Below the pieces are notes generated by a model, which saw only the letters and a program-made list of their open reading frames with translations, was not told where the DNA came from and searched no databases. 64,000 bases of DNA from the IMG/VR virus record IMGVR_UViG_3300045988_165032, one strand, 5' to 3'. The DNA is from a virus. A program made the translations under genes and the position numbers. Below are positions 3,512 through 51,265 of the stretch, in pieces. How positions within the stretch are numbered: the stretch's first letter is position 1; each line of letters starts with the position of its first letter.

Positions 3512-4526
3512 CAACCCTTTTGTGGGTTTAAAGGACTGTGTAAAACTTTTCCAGCTTACCACTGGGGTTATCGTTTAAGATAGCTAACGGGGAACCCTAA
3601 GTAGAAATATATGGGAATCCCGTGGGAAACTTTGGACAGAAATAATCAAATTTATTTTGACTACTTTCATACACAAATAGAAAATTGTGTGGAAGGAGTT
3701 AAAAATGGCAATAGTTTACTGTTATACTAATCAAATCAATAATAAAAAATATATAGGACAAACAATTAACCCAGAGCAAAGAAAAAATCAGCATCGAAGT
3801 TCTGCTTTCAATCCTTCTGATAAAGATTATGAATCATTAATTCATAGAGCTTTTAGAAAATATGGTTATGAAAATTTTACTTATGAAGTATTAGCTGAAA
3901 TTTATGACAATGATTTTGACTTACTTAATAAGCTAGAACAATATTATATTTTAAAATTTAACTCAAAAGTTCCTAATGGCTATAATGTTTTAGAAGGTGG
4001 AAAGAATTGTGCGAGACCGCATAAGGAAGAGACTAAAGAAAAAATGAGATGGTCTCATGCAGCTCTTACGAAAGAAGAAGTTATCTCTTTGCGAATTGCT
4101 TATAAAGAACAAAAAAGTCCAACTAAAATATTTAAAGAAAAATACGAAGGAAGAATAGAATGGCAATCTTTTTTAAATATCTGGACTGGAAAAAGGTATG
4201 CTACTGTAATGCCAGAAGTTTTTAAAACAAATGATGGTACGGGAAGAAAAACCAAACTTACTGTTGAAATTGTAAAAGCAATTAGGGAAGAAAGAGAAAA
4301 AACAGGGAAAAGCTATGATAAAATAGCAAAACAATATGGAATCTCAAAAGCAACTGTTGCAGATTTGATTAAAAGAAGAACTTGGAAAAATGTCTAAAGA
4401 ACCTGTATCGACTATCCTCGGATCGGAGGAGTAGGACTACTATTGGTACGTAGTTCGAAATGGTTTCCTATGACTTTTGTCGTAGTAAGAGATAGTCAAC
4501 GCCTCTTGAAAGAGAGGACTTACGTG
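3509..4526 (+). mobile_element. Group I intron (td-like IA2) carrying a GIY-YIG homing endonuclease in the P6 loop; boundaries within about 5 nt
   Basis: 5' core CTAACGGGGAACCCTAAGTAGA...GGGAATCCCGTGGGAAAC resembles the T4 td intron P3-P4-P5 region. 3' core TGTATCGACTATCC...GTAAGAGATAGTCAACGCCTCTTGAAAGAGAGGAC gives R/S and the P9 hairpin. It separates two halves of one DnaB reading frame. Confidence 0.55.
3705..4397 (+). CDS. GIY-YIG homing endonuclease (I-TevI-like) with C-terminal NUMOD/IENR1 domain
   Basis: IVYCYTN...KYIGQT...R...E...N motifs. GGAAGGAG RBS before the ATG at 3705. Embedded in the intron. Confidence 0.8.
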   Translation: MAIVYCYTNQINNKKYIGQTINPEQRKNQHRSSAFNPSDKDYESLIHRAFRKYGYENFTYEVLAEIYDNDFDLLNKLEQYYILKFNSKVPNGYNVLEGGKNCARPHKEETKEKMRWSHAALTKEEVISLRIAYKEQKSPTKIFKEKYEGRIEWQSFLNIWTGKRYATVMPEVFKTNDGTGRKTKLTVEIVKAIREEREKTGKSYDKIAKQYGISKATVADLIKRRTWKNV

Positions 4527-5046
4527 CTTCGATTACATCCATACAAGTATGAAAATTTTAAGTGAAGTCTCATCTAAGACTGGAGTAAGAGGATTAAGAG
4601 AAGATAATATCCTTTTTATGATTTCAATTCGCTTAAAAGATATGTGTAACCAGTATGGTATTTTTATTATGACAGCAACTCAGTTAAATAGTAGTTATAT
4701 AACAGCTCAACAATATGATCAGAATCTGTTAAGAGGAGCTAAATCTATTGCGGATAAAATTGATTGTGGTATGATTATGCTTGAAGTTGATAATGATGAT
4801 CGTAACGCTTTAGAAAATGTTTTAGCTCAAGGAGGATTTGAGACGCCTCAAATTAAAATATCTATTTATAAAAATCGTAGAGGTAGATATAAAGGAATTT
4901 TATTGTGGTGTAAGGCGAATAGAGGTACTTGTAAAATTATTCCTATGTTTGCAACTAATTACCAGTATGAGTTGATTCCTATTGAAGATTTAAAAATCAC
5001 TGTTAAGCCAAAAGAAGAAAAAAAGACTGATGTTAGTGCTTTTTAA
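4527..5046 (+). CDS. dnaB: DnaB-like helicase, 3' exon (5' boundary approximate)
   Basis: The in-frame sequence upstream of the listed ATG (from about 4527) encodes FDYIHTSMKIL, the DYLQL-type motif. ISIRLKDMCNQYGIFIMTATQLN matches DnaB ISRSLKxLAKELNVPVIALSQLNR. Confidence 0.6.
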
Positions 5047-8677: not shown

Positions 8678-8749
8678 CTACCGGGCAGTCTACGCCCGAT
8701 TCTGAGAACTGAAAGTGGTTTTGGATTTTTTCAGACCAAAAATTATTTT

Positions 8750-8778
8750 TTGATTTTTCTTTAAAAAAATGTTATAAT
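8750..8778 (+). promoter_or_regulatory. Promoter: TTGATT, 17-nt spacer, TGTTATAAT
   Basis: Consensus-like -35/-10 with extended TG, 40 nt upstream of the helicase gene. Confidence 0.4.
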
Positions 8779-8820
8779 ATAAGTAAAAGTATATATTTAT
8801 AAGATAAGGAAAGGTAAAAT

Positions 8821-10005: not shown

Positions 10006-10008
10006 AAT

Positions 10009-10176
10009 ATGACAATAACTTATTATGATAGATATGCAGTTACTCCAAAAAGATGTAATAAATGTAATAGGCTTTTTCTTTTTGAAGGATATAATCTTTT
10101 CTATAGAGAGCTTGGTAGGGACTCTATAGAAATAATTAAATGTAAAAAATGCATTGACAACAATAAAAAAATATAA
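10009..10176 (+). CDS. Small zinc-ribbon protein, not in the ORF track
   Basis: 55-aa ORF MTITYYDRYAVTPKRCNKCNRLFLFEGY...KCKKCIDNNKKI with two CxxC pairs, in the gap between the helicase and dnaE. Confidence 0.3.
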   Translation: MTITYYDRYAVTPKRCNKCNRLFLFEGYNLFYRELGRDSIEIIKCKKCIDNNKKI

Positions 10177-10237
10177 TATAATAATTTTATAAATATTATA
10201 AAGAGCAAGTAGAATAAGTAAATGAAAGGAAAATAAA

Positions 10238-12759: not shown

Positions 12760-13985
12760 TGTGTGAATGGTGCTTACACACTTAACCACTTATCAGTGGG
12801 GTAATTAAAACATTTACATATTTGGCAAATATGGTTTTAATTGCTAACGAGGGTTAAATCTCGTGACAAATTTCTTTAATAGAGGTATAGTATTTTTCAG
12901 TTATACATGAGAATAGTAAAACAATGTATAAGGAGAATATTATGTACTATATTTATAAATTTACAAATAAAACAAATGGTAAAATTTATATCGGACAAAC
13001 TAATAATGTTCAAAAAAGAAAAAATGGACATAAAAGTGAGTCTTTTAATGAAAAAGCTTCTGGCTATAATTTGCCATTTCACGCAGCCATAAGAAAATAT
13101 GGTTGGGATAATTTTAATTTTGATATTCTTGAAGAGATTGCTGATGGAGAATCTCAAGAATATATTGACGAAAGAGAAATTTATTTTATTCAATATTATC
13201 ATTCTTTAAAAGATGAAAATGGATATAATATTACTTTAGGCGGACAAGGATATAAAAGAAAACCTTTAACGTATGAAGAAAAATTAAACCGATCTAAACT
13301 CTTTAAAAAAGAAGAAATTATTGATATTCAAAATCGTCTAATGAATGATGAAGAATATGATGATATTGAAAAAATTTATTTTCCTAAGTTAAAAAGAACG
13401 TTTTTAGTTAATATAAATACTGGAACAAATTATTTTAATGAAGAGTTTGATTATCCTTTAAAGAAAAATTCTAAAAGCCGCTTTTCTCAAAAAGAAATTA
13501 GAGAAATAAAAGATAGAATTAAAAGCGGAGAAAAATATAAAACAATTCAAGAAGATTTTGGAATTAAATCAGCTGGATTTTTATCTATGATAAATACAGG
13601 AAAATATTTTTATAGTGATAAGGATAACTACCCTCTTTGTGATAAAGGTGGTAATAAAGCTAAAAATGAAATCTGGATTCAAGGTATTATAAAAGATATT
13701 TTAGAAACAGATTTATCTTTAAAAGATATCGCAAAAAAATGGAATAAAAGCTATGCAACAATTAAAAATATTAACGCAGGACGTTCTCATAAAAAAGAAA
13801 AATATAAATACCCTCTTAGAGATAATAAATAAATCTATTAAAAGAAAAATGTTGTATCGACTATCCCTGGTTAGACGGGGAGTACTGAAACTATTGATAC
13901 GTTTTGGGAAATAGTGTGCAGACAAGAGAAAAGCCAAAATCTCACTACAACGTCTGTAAAAAATAGTCAGTAATTTTAAATTATG
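12760..13985 (+). mobile_element. Group I intron (paralogous to the dnaB intron) carrying a GIY-YIG homing endonuclease
   Basis: P1: exon AGCAU (12755-12759) pairs with GUGCU (12770-12774), with a U.G pair at the splice site. 3' core TGTATCGACTATCCCTGG matches the dnaB intron. Terminal G at 13985. Excision joins GYSFSI to IHALAYSFIGFQT, restoring the DnaE F-N-K-S-H-A-x-A-Y block length. Confidence 0.65.
12942..13832 (+). CDS. GIY-YIG homing endonuclease (I-TevI-like) with NUMOD/IENR1 repeats
   Basis: YYIYKFTNKTNGKIYIGQT...R...E...N. AGGAG RBS. Related to the dnaB-intron endonuclease. Confidence 0.8.
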   Translation: MYYIYKFTNKTNGKIYIGQTNNVQKRKNGHKSESFNEKASGYNLPFHAAIRKYGWDNFNFDILEEIADGESQEYIDEREIYFIQYYHSLKDENGYNITLGGQGYKRKPLTYEEKLNRSKLFKKEEIIDIQNRLMNDEEYDDIEKIYFPKLKRTFLVNINTGTNYFNEEFDYPLKKNSKSRFSQKEIREIKDRIKSGEKYKTIQEDFGIKSAGFLSMINTGKYFYSDKDNYPLCDKGGNKAKNEIWIQGIIKDILETDLSLKDIAKKWNKSYATIKNINAGRSHKKEKYKYPLRDNK

Positions 13986-15387
13986 CATACATGCCCTGGC
14001 TTACTCTTTCATAGGATTTCAAACTATATACATAGCCACAAGATGGAATCCTATCTATTGGAATACCGCGTGTTTAATTGTAAATAGTGGAGCCTTAGAA
14101 GAAGATAATATTGAAAATGAAGAAGAAACAGAAGAAAGTAAAAAGAAAGAAAAATCTACGGATTATAGTAAAATAGCTAAGGCTATTGGAGATATTTTAT
14201 CAAGAGGAATAAAAATTTCTTTAGTTGATATAAATAAATCTGACTATAGCTTTAAGCCAGATGCTGAAAACAACGAAATTCTTTTTGGAATGAAAGCATT
14301 GAGTAATGTAGGTGCACCAATTATTGAGCAGATTTTTTCTGGTAGACCATATAAAAGCATTAAAGACTTTATGATAAGATGTCCTTTAAATAAATCTGCA
14401 ATGATTTCCTTAATAAAGAGCGGAGCTTTTGATAAACTGGAATTAGAATGGGCAAAAGAATTAAATGTTGAACCAAGAGTGCTTGTAATGATATATTATC
14501 TGTCTGTTGTTAGTGAACCAAAAAAGAAATTAACGCTACAAAACTTTAATGGTTTAATTCAAAAAGACTTAATTCCACCTTCTTTAGATAGTATGAAAAG
14601 ATTATTTTTCTTTAATAAGTATCTAAAAACTGAGAAAAAAGTTGGAAAATATTATGTCTTTGATGATGCTTGTGAAAAATTCTACAATCAAAGATACGAT
14701 ATGGAAGACCTTGAAGTGATAAACGGATGCGTTTGTATTTTACAAAACAAATGGGATAAAAAGTATCAAAAAGGCATGGATAGAGCTAGAGATTGGCTTA
14801 AAGAGAATCAACAGACAGTATTAAAAGAATTTAATGAGGCTTTATTTCTTGACTCTTGGAATAAATATGCTAAAGGAAATATTTCCGCGTGGGAAATGGA
14901 AAGCTTATGTTTTTATTATCATCCACATGAATTAATAAATATTGATACTTTAAAGTATGGAATTTCAGATTTTTCTAAATTACCCGAAGAGCCTGTTGTA
15001 GATTATTTTTTCAAAAGAAATGGAAAAGAAATCCCTATTTATAAGACTTATAAAATCATTGGCACTGTAATCAGTAAAAATGATGCTCGTTCTTCAATAT
15101 CATTATTAACAACTTCTGGAGTTGTTAATGTAAAATTTACAAAAGATTACTTTGCTATGTTTGGGAGACAAATTTCTGAAAAGCAAGAAGATGGAACTAA
15201 AAAAGTTATGGAAAAAGGCTGGTTTCAAAGAGGAACAAAAGTAATGTGTACTGGGTTTAGGCGTGGAGATACATTTCAGACTAAATCGTATAAACATACC
15301 CCTACCCATCAGCTCTACAAGATTATTGACGTCAATGGTTCAGATATGAAACTAGAGCATGTTAGATATGGTATGGAAGGAGAATAA
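13986..15387 (+). CDS. dnaE: DNA polymerase III alpha (DnaE-type), 3' exon
   Basis: Upstream in-frame extension HALAYSFIGFQTIYIATRWNPIYW matches the DnaE HAxAYxLxxYQTAYLKAHYP block. HhH region ALSNVGAPIIEQIF. C-terminal OB-like region. Confidence 0.7.
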
Positions 15388-19985: not shown

Positions 19986-19990
19986 ATATT

Positions 19991-20040
19991 AAGTAGAGTA
20001 TATAATAATATATATATTATTATATACTCTACTTTTTTTG
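19991..20040 (+). terminator. Strong rho-independent terminator (about 21-bp AT-rich perfect palindrome plus T7)
   Basis: AAGTAGAGTATATAATAATATAT / ATATTATTATATACTCTACTT followed by TTTTTTT. Confidence 0.6.
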
Positions 20041-20052
20041 TTTAAATAAAAT

Positions 20053-20081
20053 TTGACAGAGTTAGAATAATATGTTATAAT
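20053..20081 (+). promoter_or_regulatory. Consensus promoter: TTGACA, 17-nt spacer, TGTTATAAT
   Basis: Perfect -35 and -10 hexamers with extended TG, 28 nt upstream of the ruvC-like gene. Confidence 0.55.
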
Positions 20082-20109
20082 TTAGATAGAAAAATAAAGG
20101 AGATTAAAT

Positions 20110-20609: not shown

Positions 20610-20633
20610 TATGGGAGCTAAATAGCTCCCATT
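20610..20633. terminator. Bidirectional terminator between the convergent modules (GGGAGCTA-AA-TAGCTCCC)
   Basis: 8-bp GC-containing stem flanked by an A run on one side and a T-rich tract on the other. Confidence 0.55.
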
Positions 20634-21177
20634 ATTTATATCTACGACTAAGGTAATCAGAGATTTCACAGATACATTGATAATTATAATCATGTTCTTC
20701 TAAGATGTCCATTAATGTTTCTATATGCTTTATCTCTTGCATGACATCTTCTATCATTTTATGCACGATCTTTCTATCTTCTACATTTCTTTTCCATTGT
20801 AATAGATGTTCTAAAACTTCGCTTTCCCAATCAGCGTATTGTTTCATAGATTCTTTCACTAAAGAAATAATTTTTTCTTCAGATAAATCTTTATATAAAT
20901 CCTCATTTTCTTCCCAACGGTCAATACTTTTTGTTTTTAAGATTGGAAATTTTTTATATTTCTCAATATATTTATGTTTTAAAAGTTCAAGAGTTTCAGT
21001 CTCTTCTTGTGATTGGTGATGATGTAAAGCCTTAAATCCAGGTAATTTTAATAAATCATATAAGTCTGTTTCAAATAAATGAAACATTACTCCTTCTAAA
21101 TTTTGCTCCATCATCTTAATCATTATATCTTCGCTCGTATTTTCCACTATTGTTTTTGGAGATACTATTTCTGCCAT
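20632..21177 (-). CDS. Hypothetical acidic His-rich protein (181 aa)
   Basis: ORF with GGAGG RBS. Last gene of the minus-strand terminal operon. Confidence 0.45.
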   Translation of the reverse strand: MAEIVSPKTIVENTSEDIMIKMMEQNLEGVMFHLFETDLYDLLKLPGFKALHHHQSQEETETLELLKHKYIEKYKKFPILKTKSIDRWEENEDLYKDLSEEKIISLVKESMKQYADWESEVLEHLLQWKRNVEDRKIVHKMIEDVMQEIKHIETLMDILEEHDYNYQCICEISDYLSRRYK

Positions 21178-21192
21178 AATATAGCCTCCTTA

Positions 21193-21642
21193 TTAGCATA
21201 ATTTAACTACAGTTATATTAGTATTAGAATAAATAGCTCCTACGCCAGTATTTAATACAGTCAAAGTAGTAGTATTATCAATAGAAGCACAAGAAGGTAA
21301 AACTTTGACAATAGTCGAAAAAGACATTCCATTAAAGTCTGTTACTGCCGCGGAATTAGAGCTACTTTTTGCCCCTTCTACATTAACTCCATTCTTCTGT
21401 AATTGCATAGTAACAGTTCCCGCGGTTCCAGATTCTGCGGCGGTAGCATCTACACTGATTAAATAGACTCCTGGTTTCTTTAGTTGAATTGAAGAGGAAC
21501 CAGCAACATAATTGATAGAGCATCCATTTAAAATATTGATATTAGTAAATGGTAAAAGTTGTCCTGTTGTTAAGGTTTCAGTCGCAGTAGATACAGCATT
21601 TAATACGCTTTTTTGATATGCTTTGTTTATTGTATATCCCAT
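21193..21642 (-). CDS. C1q/TNF-like jelly-roll domain protein (BclA C-terminal-domain-like)
   Basis: KPGVYLISVDATA...TVTMQLQKNGVNV...FSTIVKV...TLTVLN matches the C1q/BclA-CTD hydrophobic pattern. No collagen-like repeats. Confidence 0.4.
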   Translation of the reverse strand: MGYTINKAYQKSVLNAVSTATETLTTGQLLPFTNINILNGCSINYVAGSSSIQLKKPGVYLISVDATAAESGTAGTVTMQLQKNGVNVEGAKSSSNSAAVTDFNGMSFSTIVKVLPSCASIDNTTTLTVLNTGVGAIYSNTNITVVKLC

Positions 21643-21659
21643 ATTTTATATTTCCTTTC

Positions 21660-21678
21660 TTGGGCGGAGAATCTCCGC
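21660..21678. other. GC-rich hairpin GGGCGGAG-AAT-CTCCGCCC between two minus-strand genes
   Basis: 8-bp perfect stem, unusual in this AT-rich genome. No T run follows on the minus strand. Confidence 0.4.
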
Positions 21679-21694
21679 CCGTATTCTATTAAGA

Positions 21695-22011
21695 TTAATT
21701 ACAGCCGCATCCATTATAAATTCTGTTTCCTAATAAGGAAGCTTCATATGGAGAGCAAGTAATATAAGCTGGTTGTGGATAAGGTCTTAATGTTCCAATT
21801 AAGCTAGCACTTTGAGCTTGCTGACTTAGTTGGAAGTTTGCAGTCATAAGATCTCTATCTCTATCCGCTAATTTATCTCTTAAATCCTGCATTGTATTAG
21901 CATTGATTAACGCTCTTGTAGTATTTCCATCTTCACGAATTGCGTTTACAATATCGCAAGTATTACGAGAGTTTTCATAGCGAACCGCGTCTATGTTGCG
22001 ATTCGTTTCAC
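21695..22011 (-). CDS. 3' exon of an intron-split late gene (Cys-rich C-terminus ...NGCGCN)
   Basis: The listed 65-aa ORF extends 39 codons upstream without a stop, as far as the predicted 3' splice site at 22012. Confidence 0.45.
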
Positions 22012-23078
22012 CATTTTGTTATCATAAAGGCTCTTTATCCTCTATTTCTTATAGTTTCCTATAAGTTCAGACTATATCTTCATCCTATTTATATAGGAGT
22101 TCGGCACTCGTGTTGGTATTATTGTTTGTTGTAACTCAACCATTAGTCGTTGAACCTTCTAATTACTTTTATCAACTTTCATTAGCTTGGCTGCTGATTA
22201 ACATATTTACAAATATGACCTTTATAAGGTCTATTGGCTTTTAAAGCTTTGCATAAAGGAGATGTATCCTTTACTCCTAAAGCATTAGCAGCTTCTCTCA
22301 AAGAAGAATATTCAATTCCATCTATTAAAACTGCTTTTGAACTTGTTTTATGTATAGTATATTTTTTTTGTTCTTCATCTATATATTTACATGGATTCCC
22401 TTTAGTATCATATCCTCTTTTACACCAATTTGATATAGTATTTTCCCATACTCCAATTTCTTTAGCTGCATCTATTACTCCGTCATATCTAATTCCATTA
22501 ATAAGAACAGGACGTTTTTTCTTGTCAGCAACTTTTTGAGCTATTTTAGAATCTTTCATGGGATTTTTTTCTGACATTCTTTTTCTTTGAAAATCAGTTT
22601 TCATTGGGTTATACTCTGACATATATTGTCTCATTTCTTCTGTCCATTCTTTAGAGTATCCTCCATATCCACCATTAATTAAATTACATTTGCAAAATCC
22701 TTGTTGTCGATATTGTTTAGTTAATTCTGCTTCATATTTAAAAGCTTCTTCCTCTGTTTCAAAAAATTTAACTATTCTTACATCAACTTTATTTTTTGAA
22801 ATATAATCTTTAAAATACTTATTCCTATCTGAAATATTTTTATATCTATTATTACATCCTTTTCCGACATAAAATATTTCATTAGTTTCTACATTATACC
22901 ATTCATATACATAAAATTTATTCATTTTAATTCTCCTTATTTTCTTGATATTAAATATTAAAATAAAGGAGAATAATCTATCTTTCTTTGACCAATTTTT
23001 CTATTTGCAAACTTAGTATCCCAGCAATTCACCGAATATTTTACTAATAGTTACCTATTAGGCTGCCATGATATGTTT
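22012..23078 (-). mobile_element. Group I intron on the minus strand (same core family as intron 1) with a GIY-YIG endonuclease in the P6 region
   Basis: On the minus strand: P1 exon GCUGCU|, then loop AAACAUAUCAU, then IGS GGCAGC (U.G at the splice site). P: GAATTGCTGGGA (rc 23017-23031). Q: AATCAGCAGCCAAG (rc 22186-22200). R: GGTTCAACGACTA (rc 22143-22157). S: GAAGATATAGTCTGA (rc 22066-22080). P9 hairpin CTTATAG-GAAA-CTATAAG. Terminal G at 22012. P10 is UCAU paired with GUGA. Confidence 0.6.
22182..22925 (-). CDS. GIY-YIG family homing endonuclease (variant VYEW...YVGKG) with two NUMOD/IENR1-like helix-turn-helix repeats
   Basis: FYVYEWYNVETNEIFYVGKG...R...E(EAFKYEAEL)...N(LINGG). C-terminal IRYDGVIDAAKEIGV and IEYSSLREAANALGV repeats. 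AAGGAG RBS. The 3' end overlaps the intron Q element. Confidence 0.75.
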   Translation of the reverse strand: MNKFYVYEWYNVETNEIFYVGKGCNNRYKNISDRNKYFKDYISKNKVDVRIVKFFETEEEAFKYEAELTKQYRQQGFCKCNLINGGYGGYSKEWTEEMRQYMSEYNPMKTDFQRKRMSEKNPMKDSKIAQKVADKKKRPVLINGIRYDGVIDAAKEIGVWENTISNWCKRGYDTKGNPCKYIDEEQKKYTIHKTSSKAVLIDGIEYSSLREAANALGVKDTSPLCKALKANRPYKGHICKYVNQQPS

Positions 23079-23511
23079 AGCAGCATTGCTGATCCGCAAA
23101 TTTGGCATCATTAATTGCAGATTGGATTCCTGCAAATCCTAAGCTCATATTACTATTAACTCCACCAAATCCTTGACAAAGTTCTCTACCAACAGTATTA
23201 AAACCGTTTAACATAGTTGTGTTTTGAGCGTAGAATCCATCACAAAGTCCATTAGATAATCCTTGTAATTGTCTTTGAACGTCGCTGTTGTTAAATCCTT
23301 CAAATAAATCTGCTCTTGTTAAAGCTCCTTGAACTGCGGCACTATCTACTCCACTTCTATTACCAAAGAAGCCATTTCCGCCCCAAGCTAACAAGAAAAA
23401 TAAGAAAAATACCCAAATCCAAGTACCATTTCCGCCGAATCCAGTGCAATCTCCATCTTTTGCTAAAGCCATAGCATCAGCGATACTTAATCCATCATTC
23501 ATCATTCCCAT
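23079..23511 (-). CDS. 5' exon of the intron-split late gene: Gly-rich single-TM protein (ORF ends QQCC then the T of TAA)
   Basis: RBS GGAGAT. TM segment WIWVFFLFFLLAW flanked by Gly-rich tracts. The stop codon TAA begins exactly at the predicted 5' splice site, so it is removed by splicing. Confidence 0.5.
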
Positions 23512-23565
23512 AATAAATCTCCTTTTTTATAATTTATAATTTGTTTTCCATAAAAGCCTTGTACG

Positions 23566-23763
23566 CTAAAATCTAAATTGTTGTTGAAACATTTTCCATG
23601 CTTCATCAAAATTAATTCCTCTTTGCTGGCATAAATTTTTCGCAATTTGTTCTATCTCTTCTGACGTTTTTCCAGATACCATTTGTTCTGCTCTATTAAA
23701 AAGAGGATGGTTTGCAAACTGCTTTTTTAGTTGTTCCAGATTGTTGCTGTTTAATTGAGTCAT
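23566..23763 (-). CDS. Small ORF (65 aa) overlapping the upstream gene by 68 nt in the -1 frame
   Basis: Own RBS AAAGGAA 9 nt upstream of the ATG, inside the preceding gene. Confidence 0.3.
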   Translation of the reverse strand: MTQLNSNNLEQLKKQFANHPLFNRAEQMVSGKTSEEIEQIAKNLCQQRGINFDEAWKMFQQQFRF

Positions 23764-24205
23764 TATCTACATTCCTTTCTAATGTTTCCTTTTTAACCAT
23801 TTCTTCCCTAATTGATGAGATGGCTTTTTCAAATTCAGTTTTAGTGACATAACTTTCTATTGGTGCTACATTTTCTACAAGAGAGTAAGTGTTCAAAGTA
23901 GCAGTTCCATCAAGATTTATCTGTTTAGTATAAATCTTCTTATTTCCTATGTCAGTAAAAATAAACAACGAACCATCTAAATCAATCTGTGCGGCACGGG
24001 CTTCCTCCATGGATACTACTGGTCTACCTTTTAAAAAACTTTGATTTTGAGAAACCATAGTATTATATGGAGTATTCATCTGTTGTTGTTGTTCTAATTG
24101 TGCCAGGCGTTGATATTGTTGATTATAAGGGTATTGGTAATAAGGACTGTTTTGCAGTTGTTGTAAATTTTGATACATTTTACTTTTCACTCCTTTCCCT
24201 TGCAA
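23696..24205 (-). CDS. Hypothetical protein with Q/Y/P-rich low-complexity N-terminus (169 aa)
   Basis: First gene after the internal terminator. N-terminus NSPYYQYPYNQQYQRLAQLEQQQQ. Confidence 0.45.
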   Translation of the reverse strand: MQGKGVKSKMYQNLQQLQNSPYYQYPYNQQYQRLAQLEQQQQMNTPYNTMVSQNQSFLKGRPVVSMEEARAAQIDLDGSLFIFTDIGNKKIYTKQINLDGTATLNTYSLVENVAPIESYVTKTEFEKAISSIREEMVKKETLERNVDNDSIKQQQSGTTKKAVCKPSSF

Positions 24206-24330
24206 TGGTATATGAAAAATGACTAGTAATAAATTTACACTTTGCCCGAAATTTTCATTAAAATTTATTTAAAAAGTAAATTTGGCTCCTAAAGTAAATA
24301 AAAAGTACGTATATAAAATTCTGTATAAAA

Positions 24331-24372
24331 CAAAAAAATAGCCAAGAATAACAATAAATATTATTCTTGGCT
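24331..24372 (-). terminator. Rho-independent terminator on the minus strand (12-bp stem AGCCAAGAATAA/TTATTCTTGGCT plus T7)
   Basis: Lies downstream of the 24382..24945 gene on the minus strand. Separates the structural operon from the terminal accessory operon. Confidence 0.5.
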
Positions 24373-24381
24373 AGCATTTTA

Positions 24382-32985: not shown

Positions 32986-34386
32986 TTAGCCACCTATCGC
33001 AAAAACAGGTCTAACGCCATAAGTGCTAGTAGCATCATCTCTACTCGCATCTCCATATTGAGAAATTAAACAAAACCTAGTTTCGCTTGATACATCTCTC
33101 AACCAATAATCGCTATTGATATTTAGTAAACCTGAATTGAAACGAAATAAATTTAATTGCCTATTGTCAGAGGTTTGTTTATTATTGTTACGGGTATAAA
33201 TATAGCAACCGTATGCCATCACTTCATTCATCAAATCTAATGTAGCGACAGTCCAAGTCCCTTCAGCCATAATTCTACGAGATAGTATTCTTGATTTAAA
33301 AGTATCTGGTAAATTTGATGTAACGGTATTTAATATATTCGTTTTCATTCCAGAACCTATATATCCACCATTGGTAGTAAGGGAAGAATTCATCTGCCCA
33401 GTAGCTAAATAACTGTCTGGAACAATAACAAGATGATGAACTTTTGTTTTATCAACTTCTGGAAAGCCTTTGTTTATCCAATAATCAAAATCTGCTATCC
33501 TATAATTAACTCCATTAACAGTCCAATAATCGCCTAAATATAAATCTCTAAAAGTTCCATCACTAATTGCAGAAGCTTGTTCTGAAGTAATAGTATCTCC
33601 TAAAAATTTTCCTCTGTATATAGAATTATGAGCTGCGGCTCCAGGTTGAAGAAAATTCATTATAGAAGAGAGAAATATTTGTTCATTTCCAACAGTTATG
33701 ATTACATCTCCTGAATATACTGCATTACCTTGCCAATCAAGAGTATAAATATTTTTTCTTTGATTTTCAGAGCTACCTGTACCACCACCTACAATATGGG
33801 CATATTTATTTTCAACATCTTCTATATTATACTTTCCTTGTACATGTTGATATGAAGCGTGAGAAATAGTTCCAAGCCCTTCTACATGAGAGGCGGTACC
33901 TTTTGCTTCTCCACCGAATCCTTCACAATGAGACATATCCGCTCTAGCTATTGTATTATATCCCTGTGCATGAGAGTACATACCTAAAGCTTGAGTATTA
34001 CCGCCTTCAGCATGTGCTGCATAAGTTGTTTTACCAGTAGCAGTATTTTTGAAACCCGCAGTAGTACCATTACCTTCAGCATGACAAAAATTACCTACTG
34101 CATAAGTTGCTTTTCCTTCTGCAAAAGAATCTTCTCCAACTGCCCTATTGTTTGATCCAATGGTCAAGCTTCTCGCTCCAACAGGAACTTCTCCTTGATA
34201 ATTACGTAATCTGGCGGATTTTAAACTTGCTTTAAGTTCATTTGCAATTTTCATATCTTCTAAATATTCACCTAAGTTAGTTCCATCTGGTAGGTCTACA
34301 TTAGAAGCTTCTGCCCCAATAGGAATTTCTTCACTATAACTAGCACCATCATCTAAAGATATTTTTGCTGATTTAATTTTATCCAT
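32986..34386 (-). CDS. Tail fibre protein with repeated xHAEG/SHxxG beta-helix motifs
   Basis: Repeats CHAEGNG, AAHAEGG, YSHAQGY, SHCEGFG, ASHVEGLG. C-terminal beta-rich domain. Confidence 0.5.
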   Translation of the reverse strand: MDKIKSAKISLDDGASYSEEIPIGAEASNVDLPDGTNLGEYLEDMKIANELKASLKSARLRNYQGEVPVGARSLTIGSNNRAVGEDSFAEGKATYAVGNFCHAEGNGTTAGFKNTATGKTTYAAHAEGGNTQALGMYSHAQGYNTIARADMSHCEGFGGEAKGTASHVEGLGTISHASYQHVQGKYNIEDVENKYAHIVGGGTGSSENQRKNIYTLDWQGNAVYSGDVIITVGNEQIFLSSIMNFLQPGAAAHNSIYRGKFLGDTITSEQASAISDGTFRDLYLGDYWTVNGVNYRIADFDYWINKGFPEVDKTKVHHLVIVPDSYLATGQMNSSLTTNGGYIGSGMKTNILNTVTSNLPDTFKSRILSRRIMAEGTWTVATLDLMNEVMAYGCYIYTRNNNKQTSDNRQLNLFRFNSGLLNINSDYWLRDVSSETRFCLISQYGDASRDDATSTYGVRPVFAIGG

Positions 34387-51182: not shown

Positions 51183-51265
51183 AACGCATTATCCTCCTTA
51201 TATAAAATTCTTAATTTATCTTTTAAAAATAACTTTTTTAAGTTATCTTTATACATAAAGTAATA

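Follow-up and report, generated by a model that had tools for sequence, protein, structure and literature searches.

What does a large siphovirus do with a handful of genes that it keeps behind a terminator of their own, at the end of its structural genes? The question is posed by the minus strand of IMGVR_UViG_3300045988_165032, an IMG/VR virus record of which 64,000 nucleotides were analysed (the window), where five genes, here called A to E, form a compact unit. From the letters alone, an original prediction had described this unit as an accessory operon coding for a Q/Y/P-rich protein, an overlapping out-of-frame product of 65 aa, a Gly-rich membrane protein split by an intron, a stand-alone jelly-roll protein and an acidic His-rich protein, and the present analysis upholds each of these descriptions. 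As far as sequence comparison can tell, the unit is well supported as an autonomous, horizontally mobile and moron-like accessory operon that lies outside the virion genes and the canonical lysis cassette. The answer proposed here, tentatively and at clearly less than even confidence, is that C may be a membrane effector which, with A and B as cytoplasmic partners, controls membrane integrity. D, E and the intron belong to kinds that are already known. No described system among those compared corresponds to the whole cassette or to the families of A, B and C, and no paper describing the module was found in the literature.

An insulated unit with conserved regulatory DNA

The unit is laid out as terminator, conserved regulatory DNA, A-B-C, hairpin, D-E and terminator (Table 1). 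The upstream hairpin folds at −20 kcal/mol (z = −7.2), with none of 200 shuffled sequences equally stable, and it is predicted to end the transcript of the tail genes and to insulate the module, as the original prediction of a separate unit behind its own terminator had it. Flanking hairpins recur at other loci. Of 60 other loci, 34 have a terminator-like hairpin and T-tract in the 260 nt that precede gene A, compared with 10.6% of control windows, and a hairpin lies within 120 nt 3′ of C in 66 of 84 loci (18.8% of controls), carrying a T-tract in 40 of the 84 (3.3% of controls), so that the pattern as a whole is enriched 5- to 15-fold over controls. In the window, the GC-rich hairpin that separates D from C may act as an attenuator or stabilise the mRNA, and its stem is identical in locus L089, a close relative.

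Table 1. Features of the module and its borders in the window, in the direction of transcription
Feature	Position	Strand	Remarks
Upstream intrinsic terminator	24331..24373	-	15-bp stem 24339-24373, U-tract
Conserved non-coding regulatory region, presumed promoter/operator	24179..24330	-	Invariant blocks shared with L088 and L089
Perfect palindrome AAATTTT-AATG-AAAATTT	24249-24266	-	Within the conserved block upstream of A
Gene A, 160 aa	23696..24178	-	ATG at 24178 behind a GGAG ribosome-binding site
Gene B, 65 aa	23566..23763	-	Own AGGA site; other frame than A
Gene C, exon 1	23079..23511	-	Codons 1-144 and first base of codon 145; junction from alignment with intron-less homologues
Group I intron, 1067 nt	22012..23078	-	Within third Cys codon of the invariant QQCCC motif
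Intron-encoded GIY-YIG homing endonuclease, 247 aa	22182..22925	-	NUMOD/I-TevI-type DNA-binding motifs
Gene C, exon 2	21695..22011	-	Last two bases of codon 145 and codons 146-249
GC-rich hairpin between C and D	21661..21681	-	No U-tract; −16.3 kcal/mol, z = −4.0
Gene D, 149 aa	21193..21642	-	Stand-alone BclA C-terminal/C1q/TNF-type jelly roll (modelled)
Gene E, 181 aa	20632..21177	-	Acidic (isoelectric point 5.1), 9 His; predicted divergent ferritin-like four-helix bundle
Bidirectional terminator	20611..20632	.	Module meets plus-strand replication genes; −15 kcal/mol, z = −4.4

The DNA between the upstream terminator and gene A contains non-coding blocks that are invariant in L088 and L089, although the proteins of these relatives share only about 57-72% identity with those of the window. 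No good sigma-70 promoter was found upstream of gene A in the window copy. At other loci, direct repeats at helical spacing, such as TAGGGAA three times, occupy the same upstream place, and in several of them a small gene for a sigma-70 region 4/LuxR-type regulator, followed by a terminator, precedes A. In L089 (237-4058), a tyrosine integrase gene and, on the opposite strand, a gene for an 893-aa protein are inserted directly upstream of the module. The promoter of the module must therefore be local in L089, and the integrase beside the module hints that phages of the 136-kb type can be temperate. The hairpins that bracket A-B-C in many loci, the palindrome block and the divergent upstream gene of L089 fit the moron or host-interaction reading that had been offered among the possibilities for this operon. 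A 13-mer, AGAATTTTATATA, occurs on the minus strand at 24310-24322, just past the upstream terminator of the module, and again at 51199-51211; as a shared late-promoter motif it was rejected, since these two exact intergenic copies are overall no enrichment in the AT-rich window.

Conservation and breadth of the module

Hidden Markov models (HMMs) of the five families were run on two sets of loci, the first consisting of L001-L087 and the window (80 from GTDB genomes) and the second of L007 and L088-L172 (80 from IMG/VR). In the first set, C was found in 86 loci, A in 63, B in 58, D in 42 and E in 11; in the second, the numbers were 86 for C, 82 for A, 67 for B, 77 for D and 24 for E. The order A-B-C-D(-E) is always collinear, across very different phages and prophages, and many of the gaps are filled by divergent A, B and D-slot families. 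The D slot can hold two more small, Cys-containing, beta-rich families, and in many loci DUF7841 or another helical protein takes the place of E. From this distribution, A-B-C is the core of the module, with exchangeable positions D and E. One of the alternative D-slot families (alignment A11) was considered as a diverged BclA_C domain and rejected, as it showed neither profile-profile similarity nor a PDB match. A further family of about 125 aa occurs in 24 loci, three genes before or after C (for example, L052 6576-6953), and its invariant Asn, Asp-Cys, Arg, His and Asp residues include a putative Cys-His-Asp triad; attempts to identify this family (alignment A10) gave no match in Pfam or the PDB.

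Carriers of the module include prophages with holin and endolysin genes just upstream, the Clostridium perfringens phages XP41-N3 and CPQ4, and a prophage in cultured Vescimonas fastidiosa. Gene C itself reaches further. It has 6755 matches among 90% clusters and forms 2445 clusters at 50% identity, and it is present on at least 567 IMG/VR contigs, in many of which it lies 0.1-1.5 kb from the contig end. The assigned hosts include Clostridia, Negativicutes (Phascolarctobacterium, on large chromosomal contigs and in prophages), Erysipelotrichales/Bacilli and Bacteroidota. With a crAss-type homologue as query, C was found in many Crassvirales, in the cultured Bacteroides phage C3_41T2LP and in viruses assigned to Methanomassiliicoccales, and full-length examples are L007 (cr116_1), L172 (C3_41T2LP) and L171 (Methanomassiliicoccales virus vir215). 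These proteins keep the hallmarks of the family, i.e., a transmembrane (TM) helix between Gly-rich segments, the CCC motif and a Q/N-rich helical part, and C is the only gene of the module detectable with these HMMs at the crAss, Bacteroides and archaeal-virus loci. Among plasmids in PLSDB, the C family is represented by a single record, within a prophage.

The part of C that precedes the TM helix is longer (55-85 aa) in the crAss, Bacteroides and archaeal-virus proteins and contains a B-like segment, LLQQKGIDPN, the similarity of which is not significant. A fusion of B to the N-terminus of the crAss and Bacteroides C proteins was rejected on this account, as hhalign finds the expected segment at E-values of 0.04-0.06, and the similarity of crAss neighbours to D or A is likewise not significant.

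The significance of the module lies in this combination. A five-gene cassette, three of whose families (A, B and C) have no match in Pfam or NCBIfam and match only PHROGs of no assigned function, keeps its gene order in much of the gut virome and is found in thousands of gut-anaerobe viruses, and its gene C crosses the boundary between bacteria and archaea. Its occurrence in cultured phages makes it experimentally tractable, the cultured carriers being of at least three kinds: C. perfringens siphoviruses, the Bacteroides phage C3_41T2LP, in which only C is detectable, and a Megamonas element in an isolate assembly.

The membrane protein C

The spliced product of gene C has 249 aa, 246 of which are identical to those of an intron-less allele (P0001). 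Exon 1 encodes an acidic Gly-rich N-terminus, a single TM helix (WIWVFFLFFLLAW) and an amphipathic helical region, and exon 2, which matches phrog_9288, encodes a Cys-containing helical region and a C-terminal tail that ends in GCGCN. The TM segment is very hydrophobic, spans residues ~30-45 and has weakly charged flanks, and residues 75-118 show a hydrophobic periodicity of 3.65. The composition of the family is unusual, with a median of 10 Cys (5%), 11% Asn, 9% Gln, 10% Gly, 1.6% Lys and 0.3% His. Three motifs stand out among the cysteines, namely the invariant CCC, a C-x-C and the C-terminal GCGC. A named family was sought by scanning every member at a lenient E-value, which gave compositional or coiled-coil matches only. 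Structure prediction followed by Foldseek, which had been suggested together with the original prediction, succeeded for D (see below); the AlphaFold2 (AF2) model of C has a predicted local distance difference test score (pLDDT) of 48 and was too unreliable for a fold search.

The intron that interrupts gene C lies in its most conserved codons. Uninterrupted homologues place the junction at QQCC/C/ETNRNID, where the slashes enclose the split codon. In a search of only 1.25 kb, the intron matched Rfam RF00028 (Intron_gpI) with 44.8 bits (E 7e-10), which is below the gathering score of 50 because the endonuclease ORF splits the core, and it was missed by the scan of the whole window. Folding predicts a P1 helix that pairs GCUGCU(A) with (U)GGCAGC and has a U.G wobble at the splice site, and a P10 pairing (GUGA/UCAU) and the terminal G of the intron are visible in the sequence. 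By these features the intron is of group I, and its predicted removal restores the conserved reading frame of C. The endonuclease ORF scores 22 bits against Pfam GIY-YIG (cut-off 22.6) and matches NUMOD1, I-TevI_DNA-bd and the homing endonuclease family phrog_314 (2e-19); its DNA is 72% identical to the equivalent in C. perfringens phage CPQ4.

At the identical CCC codon site, the C genes of L041 (5334-5595), L036 (about 3918-5000) and phage CPQ4 (L006, about 3995-5000) also carry homologous group I introns. The L041 intron is ORF-less, has 263 nt and scores 100.7 bits, and its 3′ half is 73% identical to that of the window intron; a short and highly similar segment of the intron core is also found in phiCP39-O-type phages. 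Metagenomes contain both alleles of the window phage, with and without the intron. Group I introns have thus repeatedly used the most conserved codons of C as a homing site. This arrangement resembles that of the T4 td/I-TevI-type introns in the catalytic core, the U.G pair of P1, the terminal G, the position of the endonuclease ORF in a peripheral loop, the use of the most conserved codons of the host gene as insertion site and the presence of both alleles in the population. However, the interrupted gene codes here for an uncharacterised membrane protein, in contrast to the nucleotide-metabolism, polymerase or structural genes of the T4 type. A practical point concerns public annotations, which break the intron-interrupted C into fragments and label its homologues as spike or fibre proteins without evidence. 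In GenBank (CPQ4) and RefSeq (Megamonas funiformis), the split gene appears as separate fragments, or exon 2 is left unannotated.

The putative partners A and B

The longest ORF of gene A begins at a TTG codon at 24205, upstream of the ATG given in Table 1. Its product begins with a disordered N-terminus rich in Q, Y, N and P (15 Q, 7 Y, 6 N and 3 P in residues 1-50), continues with a beta-rich, conserved core (about 55 aa) and ends in a coiled coil. The protein matches phrog_21718, to which no function is assigned. None of its 3311 homologues carries a Pfam domain, and a scan of all members of the family (alignments A6 and A13) at a lenient E-value gave weak coiled-coil and prefoldin-type matches only. 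The motif GRxVxSxEEA...DGS...F.D...KIY.K recalls a DNA binder with an AbrB/MazE-type swapped hairpin; this candidate was rejected, as neither Pfam nor the PDB supports it.

Gene B overlaps the 3′ end of gene A by 68 nt and codes for a small, helical, Met/Gln/Asn-rich protein. A conserved family at the same position in dozens of loci shows that B is a genuine gene. Its family gives weak recurring matches to helical domains of the chaperone type, i.e., SurA_N (7 members), Trigger_C (4) and STI1 DP (2). By inspection of their sequences, A, B, D and E have neither a signal peptide nor a lipobox.

The jelly-roll protein D and the ferritin-like protein E

The jelly roll of D rests on its AF2 model (pLDDT 88.9, predicted template modelling score 0.82). 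Foldseek searches of the PDB with this model returned BclA (3tyj, E 7e-9) as the best match, followed by 3twi, F-BclA (9h38), 1wck, 8d02, BxpB/ExsFA and C1q/TNF proteins at E-values of up to 1e-5, with TM-scores against BclA/C1q structures of 0.69-0.78. According to the model, D has the BclA/C1q jelly-roll fold. At the level of sequence, Pfam BclA_C (PF18573) matches 4 of 17 close homologues of D (best 5e-7) and does not match the window protein at E ≤ 0.1, and the profile of the D family matches BclA chains at E ~2e-3. Stand-alone orthologues of D from metagenome-assembled genomes of gut phages are present in BFVD. D is nearly all jelly roll, without collagen GXX repeats and without the N-terminal region that targets BclA to the exosporium. 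It is thus like BxpB/ExsFA in standing alone, and unlike BclA, whose C-terminal domain it resembles, in having neither a collagen-like region nor an exosporium context.

This fold had led the original prediction towards spore or exosporium biology in a clostridial host, in which D and its neighbours would act on the spore surface. The closest solved structures are indeed exosporium proteins (BclA, F-BclA and BxpB/ExsFA), and Cys-rich and Tyr-rich partners are reminiscent of spore coat proteins. However, gene A, gene D and both exon fragments of C are identical to RefSeq proteins of Megamonas funiformis with consecutive accessions (WP_440972057-61), so that the host of the window phage is probably this species, which is classed as a Negativicute and does not sporulate, rather than a clostridium. 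The module also occurs in Phascolarctobacterium chromosomal contigs and prophages, and C in Bacteroides phages, crAss phages and archaeal viruses. D, moreover, lacks both the collagen region and the exosporium-targeting part of BclA. The host range largely rules out a role at the spore surface, which must be regarded as most improbable.

The product of gene E, described earlier as an acidic His-rich protein, is now identified as ferritin-like. The profile of its family (alignment A4) matches ferritins, the best being 5ls9 (E 8e-5) with about 25 further chains; the single sequence gives no ferritin match. In comparison with prokaryotic ferritins (5ls9 and 1vlg/1z4a of Thermotoga maritima), the profile aligns over helices A-C with E-values of 8e-5 to 3e-3. 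However, the ferroxidase centre of the window protein is incomplete, with the Glu of helix A replaced by Asn and the His of helix B replaced by Thr, so that only the acidic positions of the centre, in helices B, C and D, are retained. Other residues are invariant in the E family instead, namely H33, H52, D116-W117-E118 and E148.

A ferritin-like protein next to a Cys-rich one raises the possibility of metal or redox handling in strict anaerobes, in which the CCC, C-x-C and GCGC motifs of a membrane-anchored C would bind Fe-S or Zn and E would be the partner of C. The roughly ten cysteines of C, among them the invariant CCC and the C-terminal GCGC, and the assignment of nearly all hosts to gut anaerobes are consistent with such a role. 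However, E is present in a minority of modules, its window copy keeps only some of the canonical ferroxidase ligands, no match to a family that binds metals or Fe-S clusters was found, and the benefit to the phage is unclear. Metal or redox handling is therefore considered very unlikely to be the function of the module.

A proposed membrane effector

In the mechanism proposed here, C would be the effector, which enters the cytoplasmic membrane of an infected cell or a lysogen and forms oligomers there. A and B, encoded on the same insulated transcript, would act in the cytoplasm as chaperones or inhibitors that hold C inactive until it is needed, and D and E would be accessory proteins made by read-through past the hairpin. 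The target would be the membrane itself and no host-specific wall structure. The outcome would be an auxiliary and tightly timed lysis or lysis control, comparable to that by the class III holin T and its antiholins, or equally an exclusion of other phages at the level of the membrane. The unconventional lysis cassette and the defence cassette named in the original prediction are both candidate readings of the module.

The single TM segment, the amphipathic helix, and the high Cys and low Lys contents of C are consistent with an effector of this kind. Genes of toxic membrane proteins are typically well insulated and under a control of their own, as the module appears to be, and the regulator gene that precedes A in several loci points in the same direction, as do the conserved synteny of the module and the breadth of C across crAss-like, Bacteroides and Methanomassiliicoccales viruses. 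That C is portable among viruses of monoderm, diderm and archaeal hosts suggests the lipid membrane as the target. The partner roles are suggested by the weak chaperone-type matches of B and the prefoldin-type coiled-coil matches of A, and a connection with lysis by the frequent position of the module just after the holin and endolysin genes at a prophage end. No module product matches a structural-protein family in PHROGs or Pfam, which favours an effector outside the virion. In this respect the earlier statement that none of the products is a recognisable virion or lysis component stands, since no known virion or lysis family was matched.

The overall architecture resembles that of the class III holin T with small antiholins. 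In phage T4, holin T works with the antiholins RI and RIII. C, with ~220-250 aa in its family, has the same plan, in which a short segment precedes the one TM helix and a large domain with cysteines follows it, and it also lies beside small proteins without export signals, away from any endolysin. However, C matches no Pfam holin family, T-holin included, its C-terminal domain is N/Q/G-rich and helical, and carriers of the module also have ordinary holins. Among A to E, no match to any holin family was found, and a spanin pair, i.e., an i-spanin with a lipobox-bearing o-spanin, is not indicated either, as A, B, D and E have no lipobox and the module is also present in phages of monoderm hosts.

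Several points weigh against a membrane effector. The searches placed C in no family of holins, spanins, superinfection-exclusion proteins or defence proteins, and homology gives no evidence for any activity. The AF2 model of C shows long helices at low confidence, and the topology of the protein is ambiguous. The carriers already possess canonical holins. In C3_41T2LP, C closes a replication/recombination block, and in the C. perfringens phages recombination genes follow it closely, which bears on the timing of its expression. The crAss-type C proteins carry the unvalidated database labels 'spike protein/glycoprotein' or 'outer capsid protein/viral fiber', and the fold of D is also seen at phage fibre tips and in tail complexes. 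The roles of D, of E and of the many cysteines are unexplained by the model.

The labels of the crAss-type proteins and the fold of D count in favour of the main rival, in which the module supplies a virion accessory: C would form a trimeric helical fibre or spike with D as its C1q-like tip, A and B would be assembly chaperones, and the cysteines would form cross-links once outside the reducing cytoplasm. Besides the labels and the fold of D, such a structure would agree with the N/Q/G/A-rich and Lys-poor composition of C, which is like that of fibre proteins, with the absence of export signals from A, B, D and E, which implies cytoplasmic assembly, and with the position of the module after the tail-fibre region in the window. 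However, the module is insulated by terminators and apparently regulated separately, and other phages place it after lysis genes or within replication/recombination blocks. The same cassette is found in siphovirus, crAss-like podovirus and archaeal-virus genomes that share no docking protein, and neither the very hydrophobic TM segment of C nor the lack of a match to structural PHROG families is expected of a fibre. A virion fibre is thus judged unlikely, with the spike and fibre labels being unvalidated.

A second alternative is a superinfection-exclusion or anti-phage defence moron contributed by the prophage, in which C would block DNA entry or would be an abortive-infection effector kept in check by A and B. 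Single-gene morons provide the precedent, as gp15 of HK97 is a single-TM superinfection-exclusion protein encoded within the tail genes, and lom and bor of lambda are further morons. The module is like the HK97 gp15 type in being autonomous, with a terminator and a regulatory region, at the edge of the late genes and with a single-pass membrane protein. It differs in having five genes in fixed order instead of one, in lacking sequence similarity and in being conserved across phyla. The position at a prophage end beside an integrase, the patchy, accessory distribution and the varying contents of the downstream slots (ferritin-like, DUF7841 or the small Cys-His-Asp protein) would also suit an exclusion moron. 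However, PADLOC-DB 2.0 gave no match for A, C, D or E and only a spurious 12-bit Cas3b match for B, on which ground a known defence system was rejected, and the module is represented in PLSDB only by the one prophage record. C is, furthermore, 30-60% identical across viruses of different phyla, including archaeal and crAss-like ones, which is unusual for exclusion proteins aimed at specific phages. A dedicated exclusion moron is accordingly as improbable as a fibre.

The preferred membrane-effector model may be extended, with somewhat more doubt than the model itself carries, to a previously undescribed class of viral membrane effectors. In this extension, A-B-C would gate or disrupt membranes independently of the host, with a Cys-rich domain that is sensitive to redox state or metals. 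The class would be common to viruses of gut-anaerobic Bacillota, Bacteroidota and Methanomassiliicoccales, and would serve a new principle of lysis or exclusion. The recurrent homing of introns into the CCC codons would follow from the importance of this Cys-rich part. Should C prove to be a membrane effector that suffices by itself, it would represent a new mechanism of lysis control or exclusion, and it might explain lysis in viruses of wall-less hosts.

The surrounding genome and its lysis genes

The window is part of a large siphovirus genome with a GC content of ~30%. Its plus strand carries replication genes (1-20604), and its minus strand (20632-64000) carries structural genes, including that of a 2843-aa tape-measure protein. 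A nearly identical, intron-less relative is on a contig of 136.5 kb, and the capsid protein of the window phage is 52% identical to its counterpart in gut phage phAss-1.

An endolysin had been reported as missing from the window, and this part of the original prediction stands, as no endolysin domain was found in the window ORFs scanned; as to lysis genes in general, it is corrected by a gene for a Holin_LLH-family holin at 34808-34425 (minus strand), 10 kb from the module, which places the lysis locus elsewhere than the module. The holin gene is followed by an ORF of 466 aa (32986-34386, minus strand), whose sole match is a weak one to DUF6273 and which has no recognisable lysin domain. The endolysin is thus either of a novel type or encoded beyond the window.

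Two further endonuclease genes and an unassigned ORF lie among the replication genes of the plus strand, namely an HNH/NUMOD endonuclease gene, the ORF at 3687-4397 and a GIY-YIG endonuclease gene at 12924-13832, within the regions 120-914, 3579-4548 and 12767-14289. The latter two are flanked by long, structured-looking non-coding DNA and were considered as candidate introns; Rfam searches around the plus-strand endonuclease genes, narrow ones included, found none. Near-consensus extended −10 promoters (TGTTATAAT) occur in the plus-strand intergenic DNA at 1898-1963, 8678-8820, 10006-10237 and 19986-20109, with a site at 20053-20081 that matches at 12 of 12 positions. Such promoters were not seen in the late regions of the minus strand, including the region upstream of the module, suggesting that host sigma-70 drives the early genes and another factor the late ones.

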